Shown: positions 4,301 to 16,217, numbered from the stretch's first letter. The stretch is DNA of 64,000 nucleotides from Bacilli bacterium (GCA_045628045.1 JAZQOV010000011.1:68912-132911); one strand, 5' to 3'. The notes: generated by a model from the sequence alone, not told the origin. Translations and numbers: made by a program.

Positions 4301-6611
4301 AATGACTACAACTGGCACAAAGGATGTCACCGTTTCATATAGCGAAAACGGCATAACTAAGTCCGCAAGTTACACTATTCAAGTAATTGCGATTGTTGCC
4401 ACCTCTATTGAATTAACAGGAAATTTCAAAACTGAATATGAAGTTGGAGATACTTTTTCTACTTCTGGAATGACAGTAGTTGAGCATTTTAATAATGGTA
4501 CAACTGCTAATCATAACCCGTCATCATGCACGATTAGCGGATATGACTTAAACGTGCCAGGTAAGCAAACTGTTACTGTTTCCTATAATGGTAATTCTAC
4601 ATCTTATGAAATTATCGTTAAAAGCAATGGAAAAATAATTGAAGAAAGATCCGTTTCATTAAGCATAGCAACATATGCTGCAGCTAACAGCTGGGCCAAT
4701 GATACAAAATATTCAACAATTAATGCTAACTCGGATATAACATTTACAGCAGCAGGTGGAGGTAATACCGGAAAATATTTTACATCCGGAAATAACTGGA
4801 GATTTTATCAAAACGAAACACCAACCCTAACAATCTCATGCCCATCTAAAGGAGTCATTAAGTCTGCTAAAATAACATATACAGTATCTAATACTGGCAT
4901 TTTAACTTTTGGCTCTTCAAATATAAAATCGGATGAGACAATATCTATAAATGCACAAAGTGCAGTTTTTGGTGTAGGAAATACAGGAATAGCAACTAAT
5001 GGTCAAGTGCGCATTACAAATATTGATGTTCTCTACGAAATAACAATAGATGATAGTGGTAAAACTTTAGAATCAATTTCTCTTTCTGGTGAATACACAA
5101 CCTCATTTACTGTTGGTGATGAATTCTCCTTTGGGGGAACAGTTACCGCAACATATTCTGATAATACAACTGAAGATGTAACTAGCGAAGCAACATTTAG
5201 CGGTTATGATCTTTCAACTTCTGGTGATCAAACAGTTACAGTCGCCTTTGATGACGTAACAACAACATATGGAATTATTGTAAATGAGATAGATCCAACC
5301 GCCTCATTGACTTTAAACTTTGATTTAACGAAGAATCCAGGAAATTGGCCGACAGAAAACTCAACTGCACTAACGAATTATTCATATTCTTTAAAAGGAA
5401 CAGACTACACATTTAGTCTTAGGAATGTTAAATGTAATTCTGGTTATCTTATGCTTACTAAAACAGCAATTTTAGGTCTTCCAGCAATTAATGGTTATAA
5501 ATTAACAACTATTGTTGCAAGCAATTCTGGTGGTTGTTCAACATCTACAAACGTTGGTGTTTCCTCATCCACAGATGTTGCAGATTATATAAGCGGTGGT
5601 GAAGCTATAAAATGGGGAACTCAAGGCTCTACATATACATATGAGTTGGCTGAAACACAAAGCAATACCATGTACTACTTAATTGCAACGAATGCAAATG
5701 CTCAAATTGTTAATCTTGAATTAACTTACACACCTTTTGTTGAAATTAATGCAAATGAATACTCTTTAGTAACAAATGTCAATGAATTAAGAACTGGTGA
5801 TGAAATCATTTTTACCGCATATCGTAATACTAATAAAACTGCTTATACAATGAGCAGCGAATATGGCGGCCATGTTACTGCATCATCATTAACATTTGAT
5901 TCTGAGAAAATGATAGCCAATGAGGATTCTATGTCTTTCATTATTGAAAGAACTGGTAATAATTTTAGATTTAGGAATTCCTCCGGCAATTATTTATGTA
6001 CAACTAAAAAAGACACTGGCGGATCAGGTTTTGAAAGTGGCACATTAACAAATAAATCATTGTTCAATCTTTCATATGAAAATGATGTTATGAATGTTGT
6101 TGGCGTTTCAGAAAATACCGACTTCAAGGTTTTACAGTTTAACTATGCTACTGGAAGCCCACGTTTTGCGTTCTATCAAACAGCAACACAAACCCAGGTT
6201 TCTATTTACAAAAAGACAAGTCAGATTTATGCTGATTCATGGGCAAAATCCTTCTTAGAAAGCACAGATCACTGTAATGTTTCAGACTGGTCAGCATTAA
6301 AGTCTTCATACAATAATTTACAGGACATCGTAAAGGAAGAAATTTCTAGTGTCGAAGCTAATGCTTCTACTGACTATTCATTAAGAGCTCAAGCAATGGC
6401 AAGATATGATTACATGCTTGCTCGTGGTGATATTGACCAAGCAAATAATTTCATTTCTGAAAGAGGTGTAGCAGGTCATAGACCAGTTCTTATAGGTTCA
6501 ATTCTTTTGGAAAATGATAATACACTTTTGATTGCAATTATCTCATTAGTTGGAGTGTCTATTATTGGTGGTTATTTCTTTGTGAAACGCCGCAAAAATG
6601 AGGAATTATAA
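1311..6611 (+). CDS. giant membrane-anchored extracellular nuclease: Endonuclease-I family domain, Big_2 domain, 5 or more ~85-aa Ig-like (group 3-type) repeats, C-terminal TM anchor
   Basis: Signal peptide MKNRNFLKNSIRLLLPSSLVLGVLFG starts at the ATG at 1311. The track's 1197 start lies upstream of the signal peptide. NREHIWPKS and DPMHLWAGNGRVNGTEHNN match the Endonuclease I (EndA/Vvn) EH…P and DLHxLxPAxGxVNxxRSN motifs. Repeats such as SITLSGEYSTEF…YTIEV occur. The C-terminus is …LLIAIISLVGVSIIGGYFFVKRRKNEEL. Confidence 0.75.
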   Translation: MKNRNFLKNSIRLLLPSSLVLGVLFGVSKGPVKKADAYTKDGQLATKIDLKDSTEEEIKNYYSDLNGLDANQLQGNNLLKNLKPILKNGQKYFAYDSSGDDLWKMYEIIDRDWVKSPASEISGYDPSTKIITGYKYGTSSTNKGTNPYIHALYVDRNVDNQTRAWDDHQQTQWGINREHIWPKSQGFDAEGAGGARGDPMHLWAGNGRVNGTEHNNNMYGFVDKSKSYTNPYDAKGFKNLRDNYSGKSLTVPSSTDTVFEPQDSDKGDIARAIFYMVARYNNIAGNDSTINQDNPNLALKQTTQALAKYTTTSSNKQTGYMGLMTDLLYWNHLDPVDEFEIHRNNLLFNNYTHNRNPFIDYPEWADYIWGKPVYNGRNYVSYSSTPTGSVNLSTDVINGFKGEQPQQVTVTSIEITKKPTKLVYNSGETLDTAGMEVKAHLSNNTTRILSASDYAVTPSGTLKTTDTQATITYEGKSASFAIAVKSSGGSTTTPAVVGTVLLEESFADFKANDTPTKNGSSTTVYNNATVTYKCNDGGSATKIYNETNAGGTSPEILISKNNGSFVISNVPTGNATEMTLTYKSNNTNNSVNTTSTDYSVSGSPKNYTFSLKSGCTAPETISISIDNSKGSNTRVDDIKLVVKTAGTSGSTNVDVSSITLNKNSATMEIGTSEQLSATISPDDATIKLVSWSSSNSSVVEVSDEGEITAKSPGNATITCSALDGSGVTATCTITVNAPVTLESITLSGEYSTEFYIGDPFSSDGLVVTANYSDNTHIDVTDDVEITGYDMESEGTQIVTVSYGEKTATYTIEVKEKGLASNEIMFIASQLGLVNGDNLESYTDSIATLTFVKNSGTQPKYYSSNSSFRVYAKNSFTIVGTKNIAKIEFEMTSTDYVGSNPITANVGTFSSNVWTGESSSVTFTVGGSNGQRNIVSIKVTYDESSADVKVLSSVSLSGTYKTEFFRNETFTSEGLIVTAHYTDETSAVVTPESISSPTMTTTGTKDVTVSYSENGITKSASYTIQVIAIVATSIELTGNFKTEYEVGDTFSTSGMTVVEHFNNGTTANHNPSSCTISGYDLNVPGKQTVTVSYNGNSTSYEIIVKSNGKIIEERSVSLSIATYAAANSWANDTKYSTINANSDITFTAAGGGNTGKYFTSGNNWRFYQNETPTLTISCPSKGVIKSAKITYTVSNTGILTFGSSNIKSDETISINAQSAVFGVGNTGIATNGQVRITNIDVLYEITIDDSGKTLESISLSGEYTTSFTVGDEFSFGGTVTATYSDNTTEDVTSEATFSGYDLSTSGDQTVTVAFDDVTTTYGIIVNEIDPTASLTLNFDLTKNPGNWPTENSTALTNYSYSLKGTDYTFSLRNVKCNSGYLMLTKTAILGLPAINGYKLTTIVASNSGGCSTSTNVGVSSSTDVADYISGGEAIKWGTQGSTYTYELAETQSNTMYYLIATNANAQIVNLELTYTPFVEINANEYSLVTNVNELRTGDEIIFTAYRNTNKTAYTMSSEYGGHVTASSLTFDSEKMIANEDSMSFIIERTGNNFRFRNSSGNYLCTTKKDTGGSGFESGTLTNKSLFNLSYENDVMNVVGVSENTDFKVLQFNYATGSPRFAFYQTATQTQVSIYKKTSQIYADSWAKSFLESTDHCNVSDWSALKSSYNNLQDIVKEEISSVEANASTDYSLRAQAMARYDYMLARGDIDQANNFISERGVAGHRPVLIGSILLENDNTLLIAIISLVGVSIIGGYFFVKRRKNEEL

Positions 6612-7072
6612 TGAGCGAGATTAAAGTGCTTGTTAACAATTCCAAAGCAAAATTCCTCTATTTTTTAGAGGATTTTTTGGAATGTGGTATTGAACTCAAG
6701 GGTTCTGAGATTAAATCAATTAGGCAAAATGGCGCATCATTAAGAGACTCATATGTCATCTTCAAAAATGAAGAAGCATTCATCTTAAATATGAACATTG
6801 CTCCTTATGAAAATGGTAACAATTTTAATCATGAACCAAATAGAACTCGTAAGCTTCTTCTTCATAAGAATGAAATACTTAAATTAGAGAAGAAGGCTAA
6901 AGAGAAAGTTATGACTATTGTGCCTACTAAAATTTACCTCAAAAAAGGCAAAGTTAAAGTAGAGATCGCTTTAGCGAAAGGTAAGAAATTATTTGATAAA
7001 CGTGAGACCATCAAAAAGCGTGATGATGAACGCATGATGGCAAAGATGAAAAAGGGATTCGAAAGACAATAA
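6611..7072 (+). CDS. smpB: SsrA-binding protein SmpB
   Basis: Full-length 153-aa protein with the typical SmpB sequence (…GIELKGSEIKSIR…LLLHKNEILKL…). Confidence 0.95.
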   Translation: MSEIKVLVNNSKAKFLYFLEDFLECGIELKGSEIKSIRQNGASLRDSYVIFKNEEAFILNMNIAPYENGNNFNHEPNRTRKLLLHKNEILKLEKKAKEKVMTIVPTKIYLKKGKVKVEIALAKGKKLFDKRETIKKRDDERMMAKMKKGFERQ

Positions 7073-7179
7073 TGAATCTCTTTTTTATCACTCATTATTA
7101 ATAAATTAATAACTAATTGCGCGCAAGCGGATTCACTTGCTCACGCACGTATAAATAAGTAAAATATTCCTAATTAATT

Positions 7180-10100
7180 ATGGAAAAAAAGCACAAAATA
7201 TTTTCTTCGATAGGCATTTCTGCGATTGCACTTTTCTCTCTCGTTATTGCAGAACGTGGAATCGATGGATCTTTTTTGTCTGCAAAATTTCGTAATGTAA
7301 GTCAATACGGTTTATCACTTAATTCATCAAACTCATTTGCTGGTGGTAGTGGAACCAAAGTTGTTTATACAAATGGTAGCAATCCAGTTACATTTTCATA
7401 CACTTCTTGTTCTTCATTAAGTGGTGGACACGTAAAAATTAATGAAAACGGAACAATTGCTAACGAAGATCATATTAGATCTATAACTGGTGTTACACCT
7501 GTTTTTACATGCTCCAGCGAAGCAACTAGTTTTGAATTTAGAGCATCATATGATAAAGAAACTTGGGGTCAATGGGGGTCTTTAGCAAGTGGTAAAACAC
7601 GTCAATTTGAATCTGGACCTTATTACTTTGAATTTAAGGCTATTAATGGAGCAGTTAATTTAACTTCTCTTAATTTTGAATATTCATGTGAAAGAAATTG
7701 GACTGTCGAACCAGAAGGTGAAGATAGTGGAACTAAAGAATTTGTGAAAGTTGCATCTGCTTTGGATGACTATGCTGGAACATATTTAATTGTTTGTGAA
7801 TCAGAAGGTGTTGCATTTGATGGTTCTTTAACTAAATCTACAAGCACAGCGATTAGTGCTTCAGGAAATAAATTCGCTGTCACAATCACTGATGGAAAAA
7901 TTGCCTATACAGACGATATTGCTAACAAAGTTTTTGAAATTACTGATGACGGTGAAGACTCTAGTGGTAATATGACTTATCAAATCACATCACATTCGGG
8001 ATATAAAATTACAAATACTGCTGATAGCAATTCTATGAGCGTTTTAGATGTTGATGATGATACAGACTATTATAACTGGATTGGTTTTTGTGATAATGAT
8101 GGATCAGATAATGATTTCTATATTAAGGGAAGCGGAGGATCTTATTTAAGATACAATTCATCTAATACACAGTTCAGATATTACAAATCATCAACTTACA
8201 AAGGACAAGCAGAAGTTTTCTTGTATAAATTATCAAATGGATCTGTCCCGATTGGAATTCCAGAATATGAAGCAAAACTTCAAATAACTGATAATAATTC
8301 CGATAACTATATTTATGGTCATTCATTAAGTGAATCATTTGGAACTGAAGATTTTAAAGCATCTGTTTTAATGTCTAACGGAACTGAAACAGCCATTGAT
8401 CCAAGCCAATTAACTATTGATATTGAAAAAGGTGGTGCACATTATGCATCTAATACCGCGCTTAATAGCGAAGGCACTTATAACGTTACAATTTCATATG
8501 GAGAATTAGCTCCAGTTAAATATCAAATCACAGTAAGTAAGATTGCTGTTGCATCTGTTACTTTTGATAAGAGCTCATTACGCTTGAAACCATCAGAAGA
8601 TTACACACTTACTGCAACTGTATTACCAGAAACTGCATTTGACAAGTCTTTGACTTGGACTTCTACAAATAATTCAGTTGCGACAGTTTCTACATCGGGT
8701 AAAGTTACTGCTGTAGCTGATGGAACTGCAACAATTAAGGCAACCGCAAATAATGGTATATATGCATCTTGTGAAGTTACTGTTGCTTCAGCAGGACTTG
8801 TTGATCCAGGAATGCAAGCAGCTTATGAAGCAGCTATTGCTTTAAGCAATTCCTCCGAATCTAACAGTTCGTATGAATTTACTGGTGTTGTAGTTGGCAC
8901 AAGAACATCAGGATCAAATAAAGATGTGTATGTCCAAAGTGGCGATTATGCACTAGACGTTTATAACAGTGGAAAAACGATGGCTTATAAAGATGAAGTC
9001 ACTGTAAAATCCACATTAACAAAATATTCTGGAATTCCTGAAACAAAGACCATTAAGTCGTTCACAAATAATGGTCAATCAGTGTTGCCGCAAGCAAATG
9101 TAATTAATTCTGCATCAGATTTAGCTGATGCTAAGATTAATACATTATTAAATGCATCTGGAACAATTAAAACATTAAGTGCTTCAGGGTCGAGCATTAC
9201 GGGTTCAAACGATGTTACAATTACTTTAACTACATCAAATGGCGACATTGCTGTTTTTGCAAAGAAGAATTCCTATAGCGGAATAAAGACAACTCTCCAA
9301 GGATTTAAGGTCGGAGATATCATGAATATCGAAAATGGTATTAGAGGTATTTACAATACAACTGACCAAGTTTTACTTGTTTCAGAATCAGTTGTTACAA
9401 AAGGTACTCCAGTACACGTTGATGTTACAGGAATTACAGTTTCTCCAACAAATGTTGATGTCAACGTTAATAGCACAACAACATTAACTGCAACAATCGC
9501 ACCAGCAAACGCATCTAATAAAGGTGTTGTTTGGTCTTCAAGCAACTCAAATGTCGCGTCTGTTAATCAAAATGGTGTTGTTTCAGGTCATATTGCAGGA
9601 CAGTCTGCAACTATTTACGCAAAATCAGCTGAGAATAATTCAATTTCGGCTTCATGTACAGTTAATGTTAAAGCAATATCAGTTCAATCCGTGTCTTTAG
9701 ATCAAAATACTGCAACTATAGCTATTGGTGAAGAATTGACATTAACTCATACAATCTCACCATCTACTGCATCTAACCAAAATGTAACATGGTCAAGTAA
9801 TGATCAATCTGTTGCAACTGTTAGCAATGGTGTTGTTTCGGCGTTAGCTGAAGGTGAGGCAACTATTACAGTTAAGACTGATGATGGAAATCACACAGCA
9901 AGTTGTGTTGTTACTGTTACTGAAAAATCAGCAGTAAAAGAATGGGTTTTAGTTACTACGGCATCACAATTAATTAAAGATAACTTATATGTTATTGCTT
10001 GTAATTCTAAAGGCACAACTGCCGGAGATATTAGCAGTTCAATCATGGCTTCATTAGGTTCTACTTTTAGCAATGACAAATCAAAAATTACAACATTAAA

Positions 10101-12774: not shown

Positions 12775-13311
12775 TTATTTTATCTTATTTAATTTTAATA
12801 ATGGTTTCACTAGAAGCGGAACCACAATGATATAAAGAATTGATGTAGTAATTGTGGTAGCAGCTCTTGTGAAAATTGTTAACCACACTAAACCACTTGG
12901 GTATTCATAAATAAGAGCATCAAGCCAAATAACAAATGAATTAGATAATGTCACAACAAGGCCTGATAAGATAACAACAAAAGCCCAATAAAGTTTGTCT
13001 TTTGTGAGGTCTTTTTTCCTCATCATTAAACCCACAATAAGGGCTCTAAAAACATGAGGTAAAATCCATAATGGAGTTGTGGGAGTTAAACCATATGGAC
13101 CAATGAGTTGATTGAAAAATTCCCCGGAAATCGCCACCAAAACGCCATCAATTGGGCCTCCAATGACAGATGAGAGGATGATTGCAATTCCCTTAAAAGT
13201 GATCTCTTGACCAGGGAATCTAATCGTCACAAAAGATAGTGCAATATAGAGTGCAAGTGATAACCCAAGAAAGGTTAATCTAAATACAGGTTTTTTGTTT
13301 ACTAGCGTCAT
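12775..13311 (-). CDS. small integral membrane protein, ECF-transporter S-component-like
   Basis: 178 aa with about 5-6 TM helices. Size and topology resemble vitamin/queuosine-precursor ECF S components. No specific motif assignable. Confidence 0.45.
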   Translation of the reverse strand: MTLVNKKPVFRLTFLGLSLALYIALSFVTIRFPGQEITFKGIAIILSSVIGGPIDGVLVAISGEFFNQLIGPYGLTPTTPLWILPHVFRALIVGLMMRKKDLTKDKLYWAFVVILSGLVVTLSNSFVIWLDALIYEYPSGLVWLTIFTRAATTITTSILYIIVVPLLVKPLLKLNKIK

Positions 13312-13394
13312 TATTGTGCTTCTTTATTTATGTGAAAAATTATAGCAAACCCATTTAAAAATAAAAGAAGCTCAATAAGTAAGTAAACAAATTT

Positions 13395-13460
13395 CTAACC
13401 CGTGCGCACTTTCAAGGTTAAAGTGTGCGCGTGCGAGGCAAAAATTTTTGCTTTTTTAAG
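13395..13460 (+). promoter_or_regulatory. structured 5' leader upstream of the membrane-protein gene (11-bp hairpin plus AT-rich terminator-like hairpin)
   Basis: GTGCGCACTTT-caaggtt-AAAGTGTGCGC hairpin (13402-13430), followed by GCAAAAATTTTTGC-TTTTTT (13438-13457), about 45 nt before the ATG at 13501. Confidence 0.3.
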
Positions 13461-13500
13461 TAAAAATATTTTGTTAAACTTTGGTAGCGGAGAAAAATTT

Positions 13501-14172
13501 ATGAAAAAATTTAAAACATTATTTACTATCTTATGCCTCGGTGGTCTTTGGGGATTACTTGAAGCTACACTTGGAACCTTACTTCATCTTCCAGTAATTC
13601 ATGAAGTTGTTTTCTTTGGTTCTACAGCAGTTTTACTTCCAATTGCCTATTTAATTACTGGCAGAGCATATAAAGTTACTGGCAGAGCCAGAGCAGCCTT
13701 ATATGTTGGCTTAGTAGCAGCCGCTATTAAATCAGTAACATTTGCATTTGGACTTCCAGTTCAATATGTCATTAACCCAATGGTTTCTATTCTTTTAGAA
13801 TCATCAGTTATGGCTGTTGCATTTAAAGTTAGCAAACCTGCAAATGTTTGTTCACCTAAATCATTCGTTACATTTGTTGTTGCATCTTTAGCATTTAGAG
13901 TCATTTATGTTGGCTATTCAATGGCTACAGCAGAACCATTCGGATCAGCATATTTAGTCGCTGGTTCAGTTATGTGGAATGCCATTATTGACTACGTTAT
14001 TGTTGCTCTTGGAATCTCATGTATTTACGCTGTTATTTACATGCTTGTTGGAACACTCTTAACACGCAAAATATCCGTAAAATCCCTGGAAAAAGTCCAA
14101 CATTTTGCCTATTCTCCAGTATTTTCTATTGTGATGATTGTAACTGCAGTTGTCGCAACAATATTGTTATAA
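13501..14172 (+). CDS. integral membrane protein (about 6 TM), possible substrate-capture/transport component
   Basis: The likely start is MKKFKTLFTILCLGG at 13501; the hairpin leader above sits immediately upstream of it. The track start at 13402 lies inside the structured leader. Hydrophobic throughout. Confidence 0.55.
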   Translation: MKKFKTLFTILCLGGLWGLLEATLGTLLHLPVIHEVVFFGSTAVLLPIAYLITGRAYKVTGRARAALYVGLVAAAIKSVTFAFGLPVQYVINPMVSILLESSVMAVAFKVSKPANVCSPKSFVTFVVASLAFRVIYVGYSMATAEPFGSAYLVAGSVMWNAIIDYVIVALGISCIYAVIYMLVGTLLTRKISVKSLEKVQHFAYSPVFSIVMIVTAVVATILL

Positions 14173-14185
14173 TTTGAATTATATT

Positions 14186-14213
14186 TTGAAATTTATTTTC
14201 GCTGTGTTATATT
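14186..14213 (+). promoter_or_regulatory. promoter of antisense sRNA-1
   Basis: TTGAAA, 16 nt, extended -10 TGtTATATT. Confidence 0.45.
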
Positions 14214-14220
14214 ATTTGTG

Positions 14221-14287
14221 ACGGGTACTGGTTTGTGCACGTAATAAAAGGATGTCAGGTTGCTGCCTGGCATCCTTTCTTCATTTT
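14221..14287 (+). ncRNA. candidate type I antitoxin sRNA-1 (~65 nt)
   Basis: Starts about 7 nt after the -10. Ends at the GGATGTCAGG-ttgctg-CCTGGCATCC hairpin plus TTTCTTCATTTT (14250-14287). The 5' 13 nt (GGGTACTGGTTTG, 14223-14235) are repeated at 14298-14310 inside the convergent mRNA. Confidence 0.45.
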
Positions 14288-14312
14288 AAGCAAAGGCGGG
14301 TACTGGTTTGCG

Positions 14313-14431
14313 CTAGTTGCTATTAAGCATTACGAGTAACACTAGGATAACAACTAGCACCAGAAGGTACTCGATAGCAAGTATCCTCCCTTCTGACCAA
14401 GCACCCGCGGTTGCCCGTAGATCTTGATCAT
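14313..14431 (-). CDS. candidate type I toxin locus 1: leader ORF MIKIYGQPRVLGQKGGYLLSSTFWC (14354-14431) overlapping a conserved hydrophobic frame …IEYLLVLVVILVLLVMLNSN* (14313-14375, -1 frame)
   Basis: GGAGG RBS 5 nt before the ATG. The hydrophobic frame is conserved in all three units with many synonymous changes but has no ATG/GTG/TTG. A conserved AUC codon sits 9 nt after an internal GGAGG. Confidence 0.45.
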
Positions 14432-14453
14432 ACCTGCCTCCATTTAAAACTAT

Positions 14454-14512
14454 CCGATTTTATTAATCGGCGAGCACATTATTTCACAACGTATATTCCT
14501 CTTGTCAAGAGG
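14454..14512 (-). promoter_or_regulatory. toxin-1 promoter (TTGACA, spacer, TGAAATAAT), 15-bp palindrome CCTCTTGWCAAGAGG over the -35, and 5'-UTR hairpin
   Basis: -35 TTGACA at 14503-14508 on the minus strand. Palindrome at 14498-14512. -10 at 14481-14489. UTR hairpin CCGATT-aataa-AATCGG at 14454-14470. Confidence 0.5.
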
Positions 14513-14648
14513 TCAAAAAAGTTACCTATATTAATATAGAAACTAAGATTTACTTATAACTCTAGAACTATACTTATATTAATATTAGGTAAAAAATTTT
14601 TAATTTTTGTTTATATATTGTTTCTAGTACTGGTGAATTGTTTTTTCT

Positions 14649-14676
14649 TTGTAAATAGTTTTGAATGTGTTATATT
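14649..14676 (+). promoter_or_regulatory. promoter of antisense sRNA-2
   Basis: TTGTAA, 16 nt, extended -10 TGtTATATT. Confidence 0.45.
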
Positions 14677-14684
14677 ATAAGCGA

Positions 14685-14749
14685 TAGATACTTAGGCGCT
14701 ATCAAATGAAAAGATATCAGGTTCCAGCCCGATATCTTTTTTTCGTTTT
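14685..14749 (+). ncRNA. candidate type I antitoxin sRNA-2
   Basis: The 5' GATAGATACTTAGGCG (14683-14698) is repeated at 14757-14771. Terminator GATATCAGG-ttccag-CCCGATATC plus T7CGTTTT (14711-14749). Confidence 0.45.
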
Positions 14750-14775
14750 GAACTCGATAGATACTTAGACGTTAG

Positions 14776-14903
14776 TTATTGCTTAGAATTATCTTGAATT
14801 ATTTCAAGTAAAACAAGGACAATAACTAGCATAACCAGATACTGGATGGCATACGCCCTCCTCTCTGACTAAGCACCCATCGAATTCTCTGGATCTTAGC
14901 CAT
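14776..14903 (-). CDS. candidate type I toxin locus 2: leader ORF MAKIQRIRWVLSQRGGRMPSSIWLC (14826-14903) overlapping the hydrophobic frame …AIQYLVMLVIVLVLLEIIQDNSKQ* (ends 14776)
   Basis: Same architecture as unit 1. A frame-3 TAG at leader positions 33-35 limits the hydrophobic frame to downstream of the leader's middle. Confidence 0.45.
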
Positions 14904-14948
14904 ATCTATCTCCTCCAAAACTATCCGATTCTATTAATCGGCGTGCAT

Positions 14949-14983
14949 ATTATTTCACACTGCATATTCCCCTTGTCAAGAGG
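14949..14983 (-). promoter_or_regulatory. toxin-2 promoter with palindromic operator CCCCTTGTCAAGAGG
   Basis: TTGACA -35 inside the palindrome (14969-14983). -10 TGAAATAAT at 14949-14957. UTR hairpin CCGATTaatagAATCGG just downstream. Confidence 0.5.
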
Positions 14984-15119
14984 TCAAAAAAGTTACCTAT
15001 ATTAATATAGAAACTAAGATTTACTTATAACTCTAGAACTATACTTATATTAATATTAGGTAAAAAATTTCTAATTTTTGTTTATGTATTGTTTCTAGTA
15101 CTGGTGAATTGTTTTTTCT

Positions 15120-15147
15120 TTGTTAATACTTGTGAATGTGCTATATT
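15120..15147 (+). promoter_or_regulatory. promoter of antisense sRNA-3
   Basis: TTGTTA, 16 nt, extended -10 TGcTATATT. Confidence 0.45.
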
Positions 15148-15153
15148 ATATTC

Positions 15154-15221
15154 GACAGGTACTTAGTAGACTAGTCAAATGAAAAGATATCAGGTTGCAG
15201 CCCGATATCTTTTTTTCATTT
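15154..15221 (+). ncRNA. candidate type I antitoxin sRNA-3
   Basis: The 5' CAGGTACTTAGTAGACTA (15156-15173) is repeated exactly at 15231-15248. Terminator GATATCAGG-ttgcag-CCCGATATC plus T-run (15186-15221). Confidence 0.45.
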
Positions 15222-15245
15222 AGGACTCAGCAGGTACTTAGTAGA

Positions 15246-15364
15246 CTAATTATCTATCAGCATTAAAAGTAACACCAATATGATAATTAGTACAATAAGG
15301 TATTGGATGTCATAAGACCTCCTCCCTGACTAAGCACCCTTTGAGCTCGTTGGATCTTAGCCAT
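15246..15364 (-). CDS. candidate type I toxin locus 3: leader ORF MAKIQRAQRVLSQGGGLMTSNTLLY (15287-15364) overlapping the hydrophobic frame …DIQYLIVLIIILVLLLMLIDN* (ends 15246)
   Basis: Same architecture. GGAGG RBS. Internal GGAGG-N4-ATG (frame 1) and GGAGG-N9-ATC (hydrophobic frame). Confidence 0.45.
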
Positions 15365-15409
15365 ACCTGCCTCCTGCTAAACTATCCGATTTTTAAAATC
15401 GGCGTGCAT

Positions 15410-15444
15410 ATTATTTCATAGGTTATATTCCCCTTGTCAAGAGG
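15410..15444 (-). promoter_or_regulatory. toxin-3 promoter with palindromic operator CCCCTTGTCAAGAGG
   Basis: -10 TGAAATAAT at 15410-15418. Palindrome with -35 at 15430-15444. UTR hairpin CCGATTTTTAAAAATCGG. Confidence 0.5.
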
Positions 15445-15591
15445 ACTAAAAAGTTACCTTATATTAATATAACTCCATTGGATTTATTTACTAAGTAAAG
15501 ATTTACTATATTAATAATAAGGTAAAAATTTAAAAAATTTGGTTCCTATTATATATTTAGTGCATAAAATCGAACTTTTTCTTTGAAAAGA

Positions 15592-15620
15592 TTGTTTTAA
15601 TGCGCTCGCTCGTGTATGAT
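15592..15620 (+). promoter_or_regulatory. promoter of the purine-catabolism operon
   Basis: TTGTTT, 17 nt, TGtTATGAT. RBS AGGAG precedes the ATG at 15648. Confidence 0.4.
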
Positions 15621-15647
15621 ATTTATGCACATACATAGGAGAACTTA

Positions 15648-16217
15648 ATGGTTGGTATTGTCCTTGCGGGTGGTTATTCATCCCGAGCCAAAGTTAATAA
15701 GCTCCTCCTGGAGGTAGATCGTAAACCTCTTATTCGTCATACAATTGACACTTTGAAACCTTTCTGTAAAAAGGTTTTTGTTGTGACAGGAAAATATCAT
15801 GATGAACTTAGTCAAGTTTTAGATGATGTTGAGATTGTTTGTAACAAAGATTTTGATTTAGGAATGTTTTCTAGCGTGCTTGCAGGAATTAATGCTGCTC
15901 TAGGCGAAGATGTTTTACTTATCCCAGGTGATATTTCTAATGTGGCTAAAACCACTATTGAAGCTTTGCTTTACGGAAATAAAGACATCCGTATTCCTTC
16001 TTATGAAGGAATTACAGGACATCCTGTTTTTATTTCGAAGAAATATGTTGAACTTTTATCTCATGAACCAGTTAGTTCCAGATTATGTGATTTTCTTAAC
16101 GCGCACGAGTGTGCAAAGGAAGTTATCAGTGTAAATGACCCTTTTATCAATTTTGATATTGATACGATTGAGGATTACAACAGATTTATTAATACAAGAA
16201 AGGAAGTTACTTTATGA
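15648..16217 (+). CDS. MobA-like NTP-transferase (molybdenum cofactor cytidylyl/guanylyltransferase family)
   Basis: N-terminal GIVLAGGYSSR…NKLLL motif. Overlaps the next gene by 4 nt, in an operon with the Mo-hydroxylase subunits. Confidence 0.7.
   Translation: MVGIVLAGGYSSRAKVNKLLLEVDRKPLIRHTIDTLKPFCKKVFVVTGKYHDELSQVLDDVEIVCNKDFDLGMFSSVLAGINAALGEDVLLIPGDISNVAKTTIEALLYGNKDIRIPSYEGITGHPVFISKKYVELLSHEPVSSRLCDFLNAHECAKEVISVNDPFINFDIDTIEDYNRFINTRKEVTL

Follow-up and report, generated by a model that had tools for sequence, protein, structure and literature searches.

The window analysed here is a 64,000-nucleotide (nt) stretch of DNA from a Bacilli bacterium (GCA_045628045.1, JAZQOV010000011.1:68912-132911). 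Positions 14185–15600 of the window form a 1.4-kb intergenic stretch that holds three tandem units, U1 to U3, each of about 470 base pairs (bp). In every unit, a plus-strand small RNA (sRNA) gene and a minus-strand mRNA gene converge on one bidirectional terminator that is predicted to end both transcripts. All transcript starts and 3′ ends given here, for both RNAs, are predictions from the sequence. The locus shows the features generic to toxin–antitoxin systems of type I, namely a hydrophobic open reading frame (ORF) under purifying selection and a partly complementary sRNA at the same place. Each unit also contains a direct repeat, with one copy at the start of the sRNA and the other near the end of the hydrophobic frame. 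Four extra units, U4 to U7, were found in relatives, and they carry the repeat at the same place but with a different sequence.

The sRNA gene has an extended −10 box (TGnTATATT) that is kept in 7/7 units and predicts a start at a G. The predicted sRNA is approximately 67 nt long and consists of a 5′ stem-loop, which contains the repeat, followed by the terminator hairpin. Outside the terminator overlap, it is the 5′ stem-loop only. The sequence of the 5′ stem varies among units, yet the stem forms in each of them (GAUAG/CUAUC, GAUAGA/UCUAUC, GGCAG/CUGCU, GAC..GUC and ACG..CGU), and the loop reads (A)UACUUAGG in most units. The predicted fold of the U1 sRNA has an energy of −29.4 kcal/mol. The terminator hairpin lies about 25 nt further on and is followed by a T run. 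Its complement is also tailed by a T run, and the terminator is therefore bidirectional. The cis-overlap of about 45 nt between sRNA and mRNA, which the original prediction had placed at the shared terminator, was recovered there in U1, U2 and U3 (14247–14278, 14709–14740 and 15182–15213).

The minus-strand mRNA is predicted to be approximately 235 nt long and to end at about 14240 in U1, 14703 in U2 and 15176 in U3. It comprises, in order, a 5′ hairpin, a leader ORF (ORF1), the ORF of the hydrophobic peptide, the second repeat copy and the terminator. The promoter, TTGACA / TGaAATAAT, is exact in U1–U3 and occurs nowhere else in the window. In U1 it was read from the sequence, as its 19-nt spacer was missed by the promoter scan. 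Every toxin promoter is preceded by perfect AT palindromes, CTATATTAATATAG and TTATATTAATAT, of which U1 and U2 have two each. They also occur in the units of relatives and could be an operator or an UP element. The 5′ hairpin of the mRNA, CCGAUU..AAUCGG, precedes the GGAGG and ATG of ORF1 (called SD1, for Shine–Dalgarno sequence, and ATG1 below).

The hydrophobic peptide, the putative toxin, has 20–23 residues, with the pattern I[EQ]YL[LVI]V[LM][VI][VI].. and an end in ..NN/DN/SKQ. In this frame, the numbers of variable columns at codon positions 1, 2 and 3 are 13, 4 and 19 (of 20 each). Synonymous and non-synonymous pairwise differences number 98 and 84, respectively, compared with 29/144 and 1/169 in the other two frames. 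The codon-position pattern and the synonymous excess show that the hydrophobic frame is the sole coding frame, and it is probably translated. The earliest conserved codon in this frame, always 9 nt after a GGAGG that we term SD2, is ATC (ATT in U6). There is no ATG, GTG or TTG start for this ORF, except for a TTG two codons upstream in U4 and U5. Only 4 nt past SD2 there is a canonical NTG (TTG/ATG/ATG/GTG); it belongs to the frame of ORF1 and could serve as a decoy. The toxin ORF goes entirely unnoticed by gene callers. Both SD2 and the ATC are predicted to lie within a local hairpin, whichever of the two mRNA folds described below is adopted.

ORF1 has a strong Shine–Dalgarno sequence and an ATG, is open in 7/7 units, and passes out of frame through both SD2 and the toxin start. 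The peptide that it encodes lacks conservation. The 5′ part of ORF1 shows no codon periodicity (10/11/8), and the stop falls at 25, 33 or 38 codons. It appears that ORF1 is a leader of which the translation matters, rather than the product. The passage of ORF1 through the toxin initiation site in another frame resembles mok of hok/sok. Two other couplings of ORF1 to the hydrophobic frame were considered and rejected. A programmed −1 frameshift would lack a slippery heptamer, and its site is not conserved. Termination–reinitiation at the ORF1 stop (ATGCTAG/GTGCTAG) does not fit the varying position of that stop.

The first copy of the direct repeat begins 0–3 nt after the predicted sRNA start (+0 to +3) and constitutes the 5′ tail of the sRNA. 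The second copy, termed A′, belongs to the mRNA. The first nucleotides of the sRNA had been predicted to recur about 75 nt downstream in each unit. This was borne out, with 16–20 nt recurring in U1–U3. The offset is 73–75 nt and the place is the same in 7/7 units, with five distinct repeat sequences. When each unit was shuffled 300 times by mononucleotides, no one-mismatch repeat between the same two regions exceeded 12–13 matches, and the best ones averaged 7.3–7.6. The repeat reads CGGGTACTGGTTTGYGC in U1, CGGGTACT(T)GGGTTGTAC in U6, CGATAGATACTTAGRCG in U2, CAGGTACTTAGTAGACTA in U3, TCGATAGATACTTAGGCTCTA in U4 and U5 (21/21 identical) and GCAGATACTTAG..GCTAGTTG in U7. Between the orthologs U1 and U6, the two copies have changed in parallel, from GGTTTG[T/C]GC to GGGTTGTAC, and share the same derived bases. 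Mismatches between copies are compatible with wobble pairing in an RNA duplex, as the T/C of U1 gives U·G and the G/A of U2 gives G·U. The original prediction of a repeat with a varying sequence, a kept position and co-variation between its copies thus extends to U4–U7 at the same offset and includes the parallel change in U1 and U6. A pairing site exactly at the toxin stop codon, by comparison, was found in U1, where it ends on the G of TAG, and in U3, where it lies over TAG, but not in U2, where it is 4 nt away. Overall, the duplex touches or covers the stop codon in 6/7 units.

The predicted duplexes between the sRNA tail and A′ have energies of −34.1 kcal/mol over 17 bp in U1, −25.4 kcal/mol over 16 bp in U2 and −32.4 kcal/mol over 20 bp in U3. 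Cognate pairs therefore range from −25 to −34 kcal/mol over 16–20 bp. Non-cognate pairs of tail and target within the window reach −11 to −15 kcal/mol, and shuffled tails give means of −13 to −18 kcal/mol. Within the window, the cognate duplexes are thus predicted to be 10–20 kcal/mol stronger than the non-cognate ones. Once the cost of opening both RNAs is included, six units have a predicted net binding energy of −8 to −10 kcal/mol. It is probable that the repeat sequence, and not the near-identical terminators, sets the cognate specificity.

A′ has further partners within its own molecule. It is predicted to pair with two degenerate inverted copies of the repeat, which we call the C box and the A box. 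The C box is the spacer between SD1 and ATG1, and it matches its own repeat in every unit (GGCAGGTA in U1, U6 and U3; GATAGATA in U2, U4 and U5; GCGGATA in U7). With A′ it is predicted to form an 8-bp helix, the upper part of the long-range helix LR1, which is extended by a lower helix, GUUUU..:..AAAAC. The A box lies inside ORF1, immediately 5′ of SD2, and has the core GGGTGCTT[A/G]GTC. Its predicted helix with A′, LR2, comprises 13–19 bp including G·U pairs. The A box also has an alternative partner, B, made of ATG1 and the first ORF1 codons (GCTAAGATC / ATCAAGATC). The B:A hairpin alone is predicted at −11 to −18 kcal/mol and contains the UG of AUG1. LR1 and B:A together define conformation 1 (Conf-1), LR2 defines conformation 2 (Conf-2), and the two are mutually exclusive. 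The original prediction overlooked that A′ is also the 3′ strand of these two long-range helices, with which the likely mechanism shifts from added affinity to competition.

Support for the helices was scored on an alignment of six sequences (A2), and U7 was checked separately. For LR1 plus B:A, 96.5 % of the cells are paired and six pairs have changed on both sides; for LR2, 89.9 % of the cells are paired and five pairs have changed on both sides. When the partner was shifted by 1–3 columns as a control, pairing dropped to 24–49 % overall and to 29–45 % for LR1 plus B:A. U7 fits all three helices, and its A at column 73 is paired with either alternative partner. Judged from the aligned units, both exclusive folds appear to be supported by covariation, and we regard this evidence as good but not rigorous, as it comes from seven sequences of one clade.

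The covariation also bears on the question of whether the repeat has any function in RNA pairing. It could be a relic of the origin of the unit, for example of a duplication around an inserted terminator cassette, with the identity of the copies maintained by gene conversion. Insertion or slippage can give direct repeats around a hairpin, and concerted evolution of close repeats is possible. But five repeat sequences are found at one position with mismatches that are wobble-compatible, the repeat begins at the predicted +1 of the sRNA in all units, and A′ covaries with two inverted partial copies, which gene conversion between direct repeats cannot yield. We consider such a relic highly improbable. 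The specific case of a target-site duplication of an inserted terminator cassette was rejected in view of the covariation among units.

In all six units tested (6/6), the gap between the constrained ensemble energies of Conf-1 and Conf-2 is no larger than 3.4 kcal/mol, on totals of about −90 kcal/mol. When A′ is masked, the predicted probability of the B:A hairpin, P(B:A), rises to 0.78–1.0 in 5/6 units. Our favoured reading, to which we assign a probability of roughly 0.6, is that the sRNA tail is a mimic of mRNA segments, competes for A′ and thereby blocks toxin synthesis. As part of the same reading, U1–U3 are probably three mutually orthogonal type I toxin–antitoxin units of an undescribed family.

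The mechanism that we propose would run as follows. In Conf-1, the SD1 spacer and ATG1 would both be paired, and initiation at ORF1 would be blocked. In Conf-2, A′ would sit on the A box and leave SD1 and ATG1 free. Translation of the leader would then open the locally sequestered SD2 and toxin start; since both are hairpinned in either fold, leader translation is a plausible opener. The tail of the sRNA runs in the same sense as the C and A boxes. As a perfect complement of A′ it is the better match, and hence should displace both boxes from it. Once the sRNA has taken A′, Conf-2 would be prevented, the A box would stay on ATG1 and leader initiation would be locked off. In addition, the perfect duplex of tail and A′ at the end of the ORF would be a substrate for RNase III. 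A cut there would separate the ORF both from its terminator and from the 5′–3′ closure. By either route, the fold lock or the RNase III cut, toxin synthesis would be turned off. The repeats, the alternative helices, the covariation of both and the coding frame are seen in the units; the transcript ends, the direction of the effect on translation and the role of RNase III we infer.

Several points weigh against this reading. With A′ masked, P(B:A) falls to 0.17 in U5. Under the same masking, AUG1 is predicted to be less accessible in U2, little changed in U3–U5 and more accessible in U1 and U6, and for SD1 the accessibility increases in U1, U6 and U3. The equilibrium accessibility calculations thus give no uniform on/off prediction, and the leader might, in principle, be activated once SD1 is freed. 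The predicted net binding energy in U7 is about +1 kcal/mol. For each of the two RNAs, the transcription start and the 3′ end are predictions, and with a non-canonical toxin start (ATC/ATT) we infer the translation of the toxin ORF itself. Finally, the sample comprises just seven units, all of one narrow clade, with about five independent repeat variants, and the covariation statistics are indicative rather than rigorous.

The higher accessibility of SD1 in three units is also what would be expected if the sRNA were an anti-antisense activator. A′ would then be an inhibitor that folds back in cis, and the sRNA would titrate it, free SD1 and the spacer, and turn the leader on; alternatively, leader translation might itself be inhibitory, with ribosomes occluding the out-of-frame toxin start. 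The tail does have the same sense as the SD1–ATG1 spacer and would displace it from A′. Once A′ is taken, however, ATG1 is still held in the B:A hairpin. Known convergent sRNAs of such architecture are all antitoxins, and one relative (L044, see below) has kept an orphan sRNA gene without a toxin, which suits a role in immunity better. We therefore think an activator quite improbable.

The unequal response of the units to masking of A′ would also be in line with control through decay only. The repeat would then extend the duplex to the end of the ORF, and RNase III would cut the ORF from the terminator or remove the stop codon. The long-range helices would serve mRNA stability, as does the upstream helix of par, and conformational control would play no part. 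Perfect duplexes of 16–20 bp at or over the stop codon in 6/7 units fit this explanation, and txpA/RatA, with a 3′ overlap and RNase III-dependent decay, is a precedent. But decay alone gives no account of the covariation of the A box with B as a second set of partners, of the two near-isoenergetic folds, or of the conserved leader ORF that runs through SD2. On these grounds we rate it as rather unlikely, and we retain competition for A′ as the favoured reading. In its most specific form, the sRNA would be a molecular mimic that toggles a bistable mRNA off its only translatable fold, and the toxin would be made from a leader-dependent AUC or AUU start. This form is tentative, and we would not yet bet on it.

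The closest known architecture is that of par (RNA I/RNA II and Fst of Enterococcus faecalis pAD1; fst-Sm/srSm of Streptococcus mutans). Both systems have convergent promoters with one bidirectional intrinsic terminator (7/7 units here), an antitoxin RNA of about 70 nt, and a short hydrophobic toxin whose C-terminus is polar. In both, direct repeats provide a second complementary region outside the terminator that is poorly conserved between loci and sets specificity. In par, a 5′ stem-loop (5′-SL) sequesters the Shine–Dalgarno sequence and an upstream helix (5′-UH) closes the 5′ end; analogous helices that covary are predicted here, namely the SD2 hairpin and LR1 (5′ region with the post-stop segment). 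The original comparison with DRa/DRb of par is thus correct in principle. However, the par repeats, which are transcribed in opposite directions, overlap the Shine–Dalgarno sequence and start codon of the toxin and block the ribosome directly, whereas the present target is found at the stop, on the 3′ side of the ORF. The initiation region of the present units has an inverted, not a direct, partial copy, which pairs with A′ in the same molecule. Fst has a PXXXG(C) motif, a conserved Trp and a charged tail, whereas the peptides described here lack Pro, Gly and Trp and have only the short polar C-terminus in common with it. The leader ORF and the non-canonical toxin start are further differences. 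The module is par-like in architecture but is not a member of par/Fst, because its target is at the stop codon, it has no PXXXG(C) motif, Trp or family match, and it has a leader ORF and a non-canonical start.

Resemblances to other type I systems concern single parts of the module. In bsrG/SR4 and txpA/RatA of Bacillus subtilis, the antitoxin also acts on the 3′ end of the mRNA, away from the ribosome-binding site (RBS). SR4 combines RNase III-dependent decay with a change of the distant RBS structure, which is the dual outcome proposed here. SR4 and RatA have a long contiguous cis-overlap of approximately 75–120 nt, whereas the units described here have an overlap of about 45 nt at the terminator and a separate site encoded by the repeat. 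The 3′-overlapping cis RNA of SprA1/SprA1AS (PepA1) in Staphylococcus aureus reportedly acts by means of a 5′ domain outside the overlap, which pairs at another site of the toxin mRNA. That domain pairs with the toxin initiation region and not, as here, with a 3′ element, and we know of no direct-repeat architecture or fold-back competition described for it. In hok/mok/sok (R1) and aapA1/IsoA1 (Helicobacter pylori), a 5′–3′ fold-back keeps the full-length mRNA inert, and alternative partners of the tac/fbi type activate it. Translation of the hok toxin needs the overlapping leader ORF mok. The antisense RNAs of hok and aapA1 target the activated mRNA at its 5′ leader or initiation region, and 3′ processing is required for activation. 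In the present units, by contrast, the sRNA would bind the 3′ fold-back element itself. The 3′ element of the present units has predicted pairings with 5′ elements that are exclusive, near-isoenergetic and covarying, and these may control translation in the manner of hok/sok. The Gram-positive type I antitoxins of which we are aware either block the RBS directly (par, SprA1) or use a long 3′ overlap (RatA, SR4).

The array lies between two protein-coding genes. On its left is a gene, ending at 14172, for a membrane protein of 223 residues that falls into no known family, and on its right a mobA-like gene, which starts at 15648 and is the first gene of a xanthine-dehydrogenase-type operon. Homologues of these two flanking proteins led us by synteny to contigs of related uncultured Bacilli, in which U4–U7 were found. 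Relatives are present in SRR21150945, SRR21151029 and SRR19135262. A more distant relative bears the name Candidatus Fiminaster equi. Copy number at the site ranges from 0 to 3 among close relatives, and as the unit count varies in this way, the module is an accessory insertion. The single unit of L034, a sister strain, has the left part of U1 and the right flank of U3, a pattern expected from unequal recombination within the array. The orphan antitoxin gene of L044 comprises an extended −10 box, a 5′ stem-loop whose tail reads CGATAGATACTTAGGATCTCG, and a terminator; a toxin gene is absent. No second repeat copy follows the terminator, which agrees with copy 2 being part of the toxin mRNA. 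The orphan tail resembles those of U2 and U4, and the gene may give immunity to toxins of the U2/U4 type. The decayed unit of L043 retains the terminator, the toxin promoter and the 5′ hairpin but lacks the sRNA promoter and tail, and its segment with ATG1 and the start of the hydrophobic ORF is inverted.

Database and pattern searches did not retrieve further units. An Rfam scan of 13300–15700 by E-value gave sub-threshold noise only, and the RatA covariance model (RF01776) scored 24.2 bits compared with a gathering score of 49 (E=3.8). Searches of Pfam and NCBIfam with the three hydrophobic and three ORF1 peptides gave only noise at E≤10. A blastn search (distant mode) of one unit against plasmid and phage collections found no match. 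A scan of genome contigs for the exact 5′ hairpin motif returned three chance matches inside unrelated genes. The pattern of A box and SD2 returned 20 chance matches in high-GC coding sequence from metagenome contigs, and was too strict, as U4, U5 and U7 fall outside it. Three exact patterns gave nothing or high-GC chance matches in viral contigs. Exact look-ups of proteins neighbouring the array in the window led to contigs of about 1 kb or to nothing.

Two further elements were seen in the flanks. Directly 5′ of the mobA-like gene (15600–15647) is a conserved motif, ..CGTG..GTGTAT.ATAT.TATGCACATACATAGGAGAAC, which is at the same position in L026, L027, L031, L032, L034, L043 and L044, whether toxin–antitoxin units are present or not. 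It may be a regulatory site of the molybdenum-hydroxylase operon. A GC-rich hairpin, GTGCGCACTTTCAAGGTTAAAGTGTGCGCGTGCGAGG, lies at 13400–13445, 5′ of the membrane-protein gene, and had no Rfam match in the E-value scan. The coordinates of all features of the units are collected in Table 1.

Table 1. Features of units U1–U3 (window coordinates) and units at the syntenic site in relatives (coordinates for the relative named). Transcripts are predicted.
Unit or relative	Feature	Coordinates	Strand	Remarks
U1	sRNA promoter	14186..14213	+	TTGAAA, 16-nt spacer, extended −10 TGTTATATT
U1	Antitoxin sRNA	14220..14288	+	start from −10 box
U1	Repeat copy 1 (sRNA 5′ tail)	14222..14238	+	CGGGTACTGGTTTG[T/C]GC, 16/17 identical to copy 2
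U1	Bidirectional intrinsic terminator	14247..14278	both	14-bp stem, then T run; inverted repeat
U1	Repeat copy 2 (A′)	14297..14313	−	offset 75; last base is G of TAG stop 14313-14315
U1	Toxin ORF	14313..14375	−	IEYLLVLVVILVLLVMLNSN; first codon ATC, stop TAG; GGGAGG 9 nt upstream
U1	Leader ORF1	14354..14431	−	25 codons; SD1 GGAGG at 14437-14441
U1	A box	14396..14415	−	degenerate inverted repeat copy; pairs with A′ (LR2) or B
U1	C box	14430..14441	−	GGAGGCAGGTAT; SD1, spacer, AT of ATG1; pairs with A′ (LR1)
U1	mRNA 5′ hairpin	14454..14470	−	CCGATT..AATCGG
U1	Toxin promoter	14478..14508	−	TTGACA and TGaAATAAT
U2	sRNA extended −10 box	14668..14676	+
U2	Repeat copy 1	14682..14698	+	CGATAGATACTTAG[G/A]CG, 16/17 identical
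U2	Antitoxin sRNA	14683..14750	+
U2	Bidirectional terminator	14709..14740	both	repeat search and fold
U2	Repeat copy 2 (A′)	14755..14771	−	offset 73; ends 4 nt 3′ of TAA stop (14776-14778)
U2	Toxin ORF	14776..14847	−	IQYLVMLVIVLVLLEIIQDNSKQ; coding signature
U2	Leader ORF1	14826..14903	−	MAKIQRIRWVLSQRGGRMPSSIWLC
U2	A box	14869..14887	−	GAATTCGATGGGTGCTTAG; 19-bp helix with A′ in minimum-free-energy fold (fold positions 61-79 with 180-198)
U2	C box	14904..14916	−	GGAGGAGATAGAT; SD1 and spacer before ATG1 (14901-14903); inverted repeat
U2	mRNA 5′ hairpin and promoter	14925..14979	−
U3	sRNA extended −10 box	15139..15147	+
U3	Antitoxin sRNA	15154..15223	+
U3	Repeat copy 1	15156..15175	+	CAGGTACTTAGTAGACTA[G/A]T, 19/20 identical
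U3	Bidirectional terminator	15182..15213	both	inverted repeat and fold
U3	Repeat copy 2 (A′)	15231..15250	−	offset 75; covers TAG stop 15246-15248
U3	Toxin ORF	15246..15308	−	IQYLIVLIIILVLLLMLIDN; coding signature
U3	Leader ORF1	15287..15364	−
U3	A box core	15326..15339	−	GGGTGCTTAGTCAG
U3	C box	15363..15374	−	GGAGGCAGGTAT; fold positions 38-45 with 173-180
U3	mRNA 5′ hairpin and promoter	15386..15440	−
U1–U3	First conserved toxin codons (ATC)	14373-14375, 14845-14847, 15306-15308	−
U1–U3	AT palindromes	14526-14539, 14573-14588, 14997-15010, 15044-15059, 15458-15471		upstream of toxin promoters
L034 (same species, other sample)	U6, ortholog of U1	6785-7250
L026	U4	5685-6130
L031	U5	4585-5030
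L044	U7; orphan sRNA gene without toxin	2340-2760; 2780-2880
L043	Decayed unit, internal inversion	2560-2800
L027-L029, L032, L033 (more distant)	No unit			125-150-bp gap at site

Walking along conserved synteny can thus recover related RNA loci from uncultured Bacilli that searches by pattern or by family do not find. The locus offers a candidate for a small bistable RNA switch with covariation support, and a membrane peptide gene that has no canonical start and is overlooked by gene callers. The three probably orthogonal copies that stand side by side here would amount to a natural specificity experiment. If the most specific form of the favoured reading is true, the antisense RNA is directed against the cis partner of the ribosome-binding region and not against the region itself, a logic that is undescribed for type I systems. 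Next to the two modes of the Gram-positive systems named above, the locus suggests a third layout, in which the par-like repeat has moved to a 3′ fold-back element and the antitoxin would compete with structure inside the mRNA.

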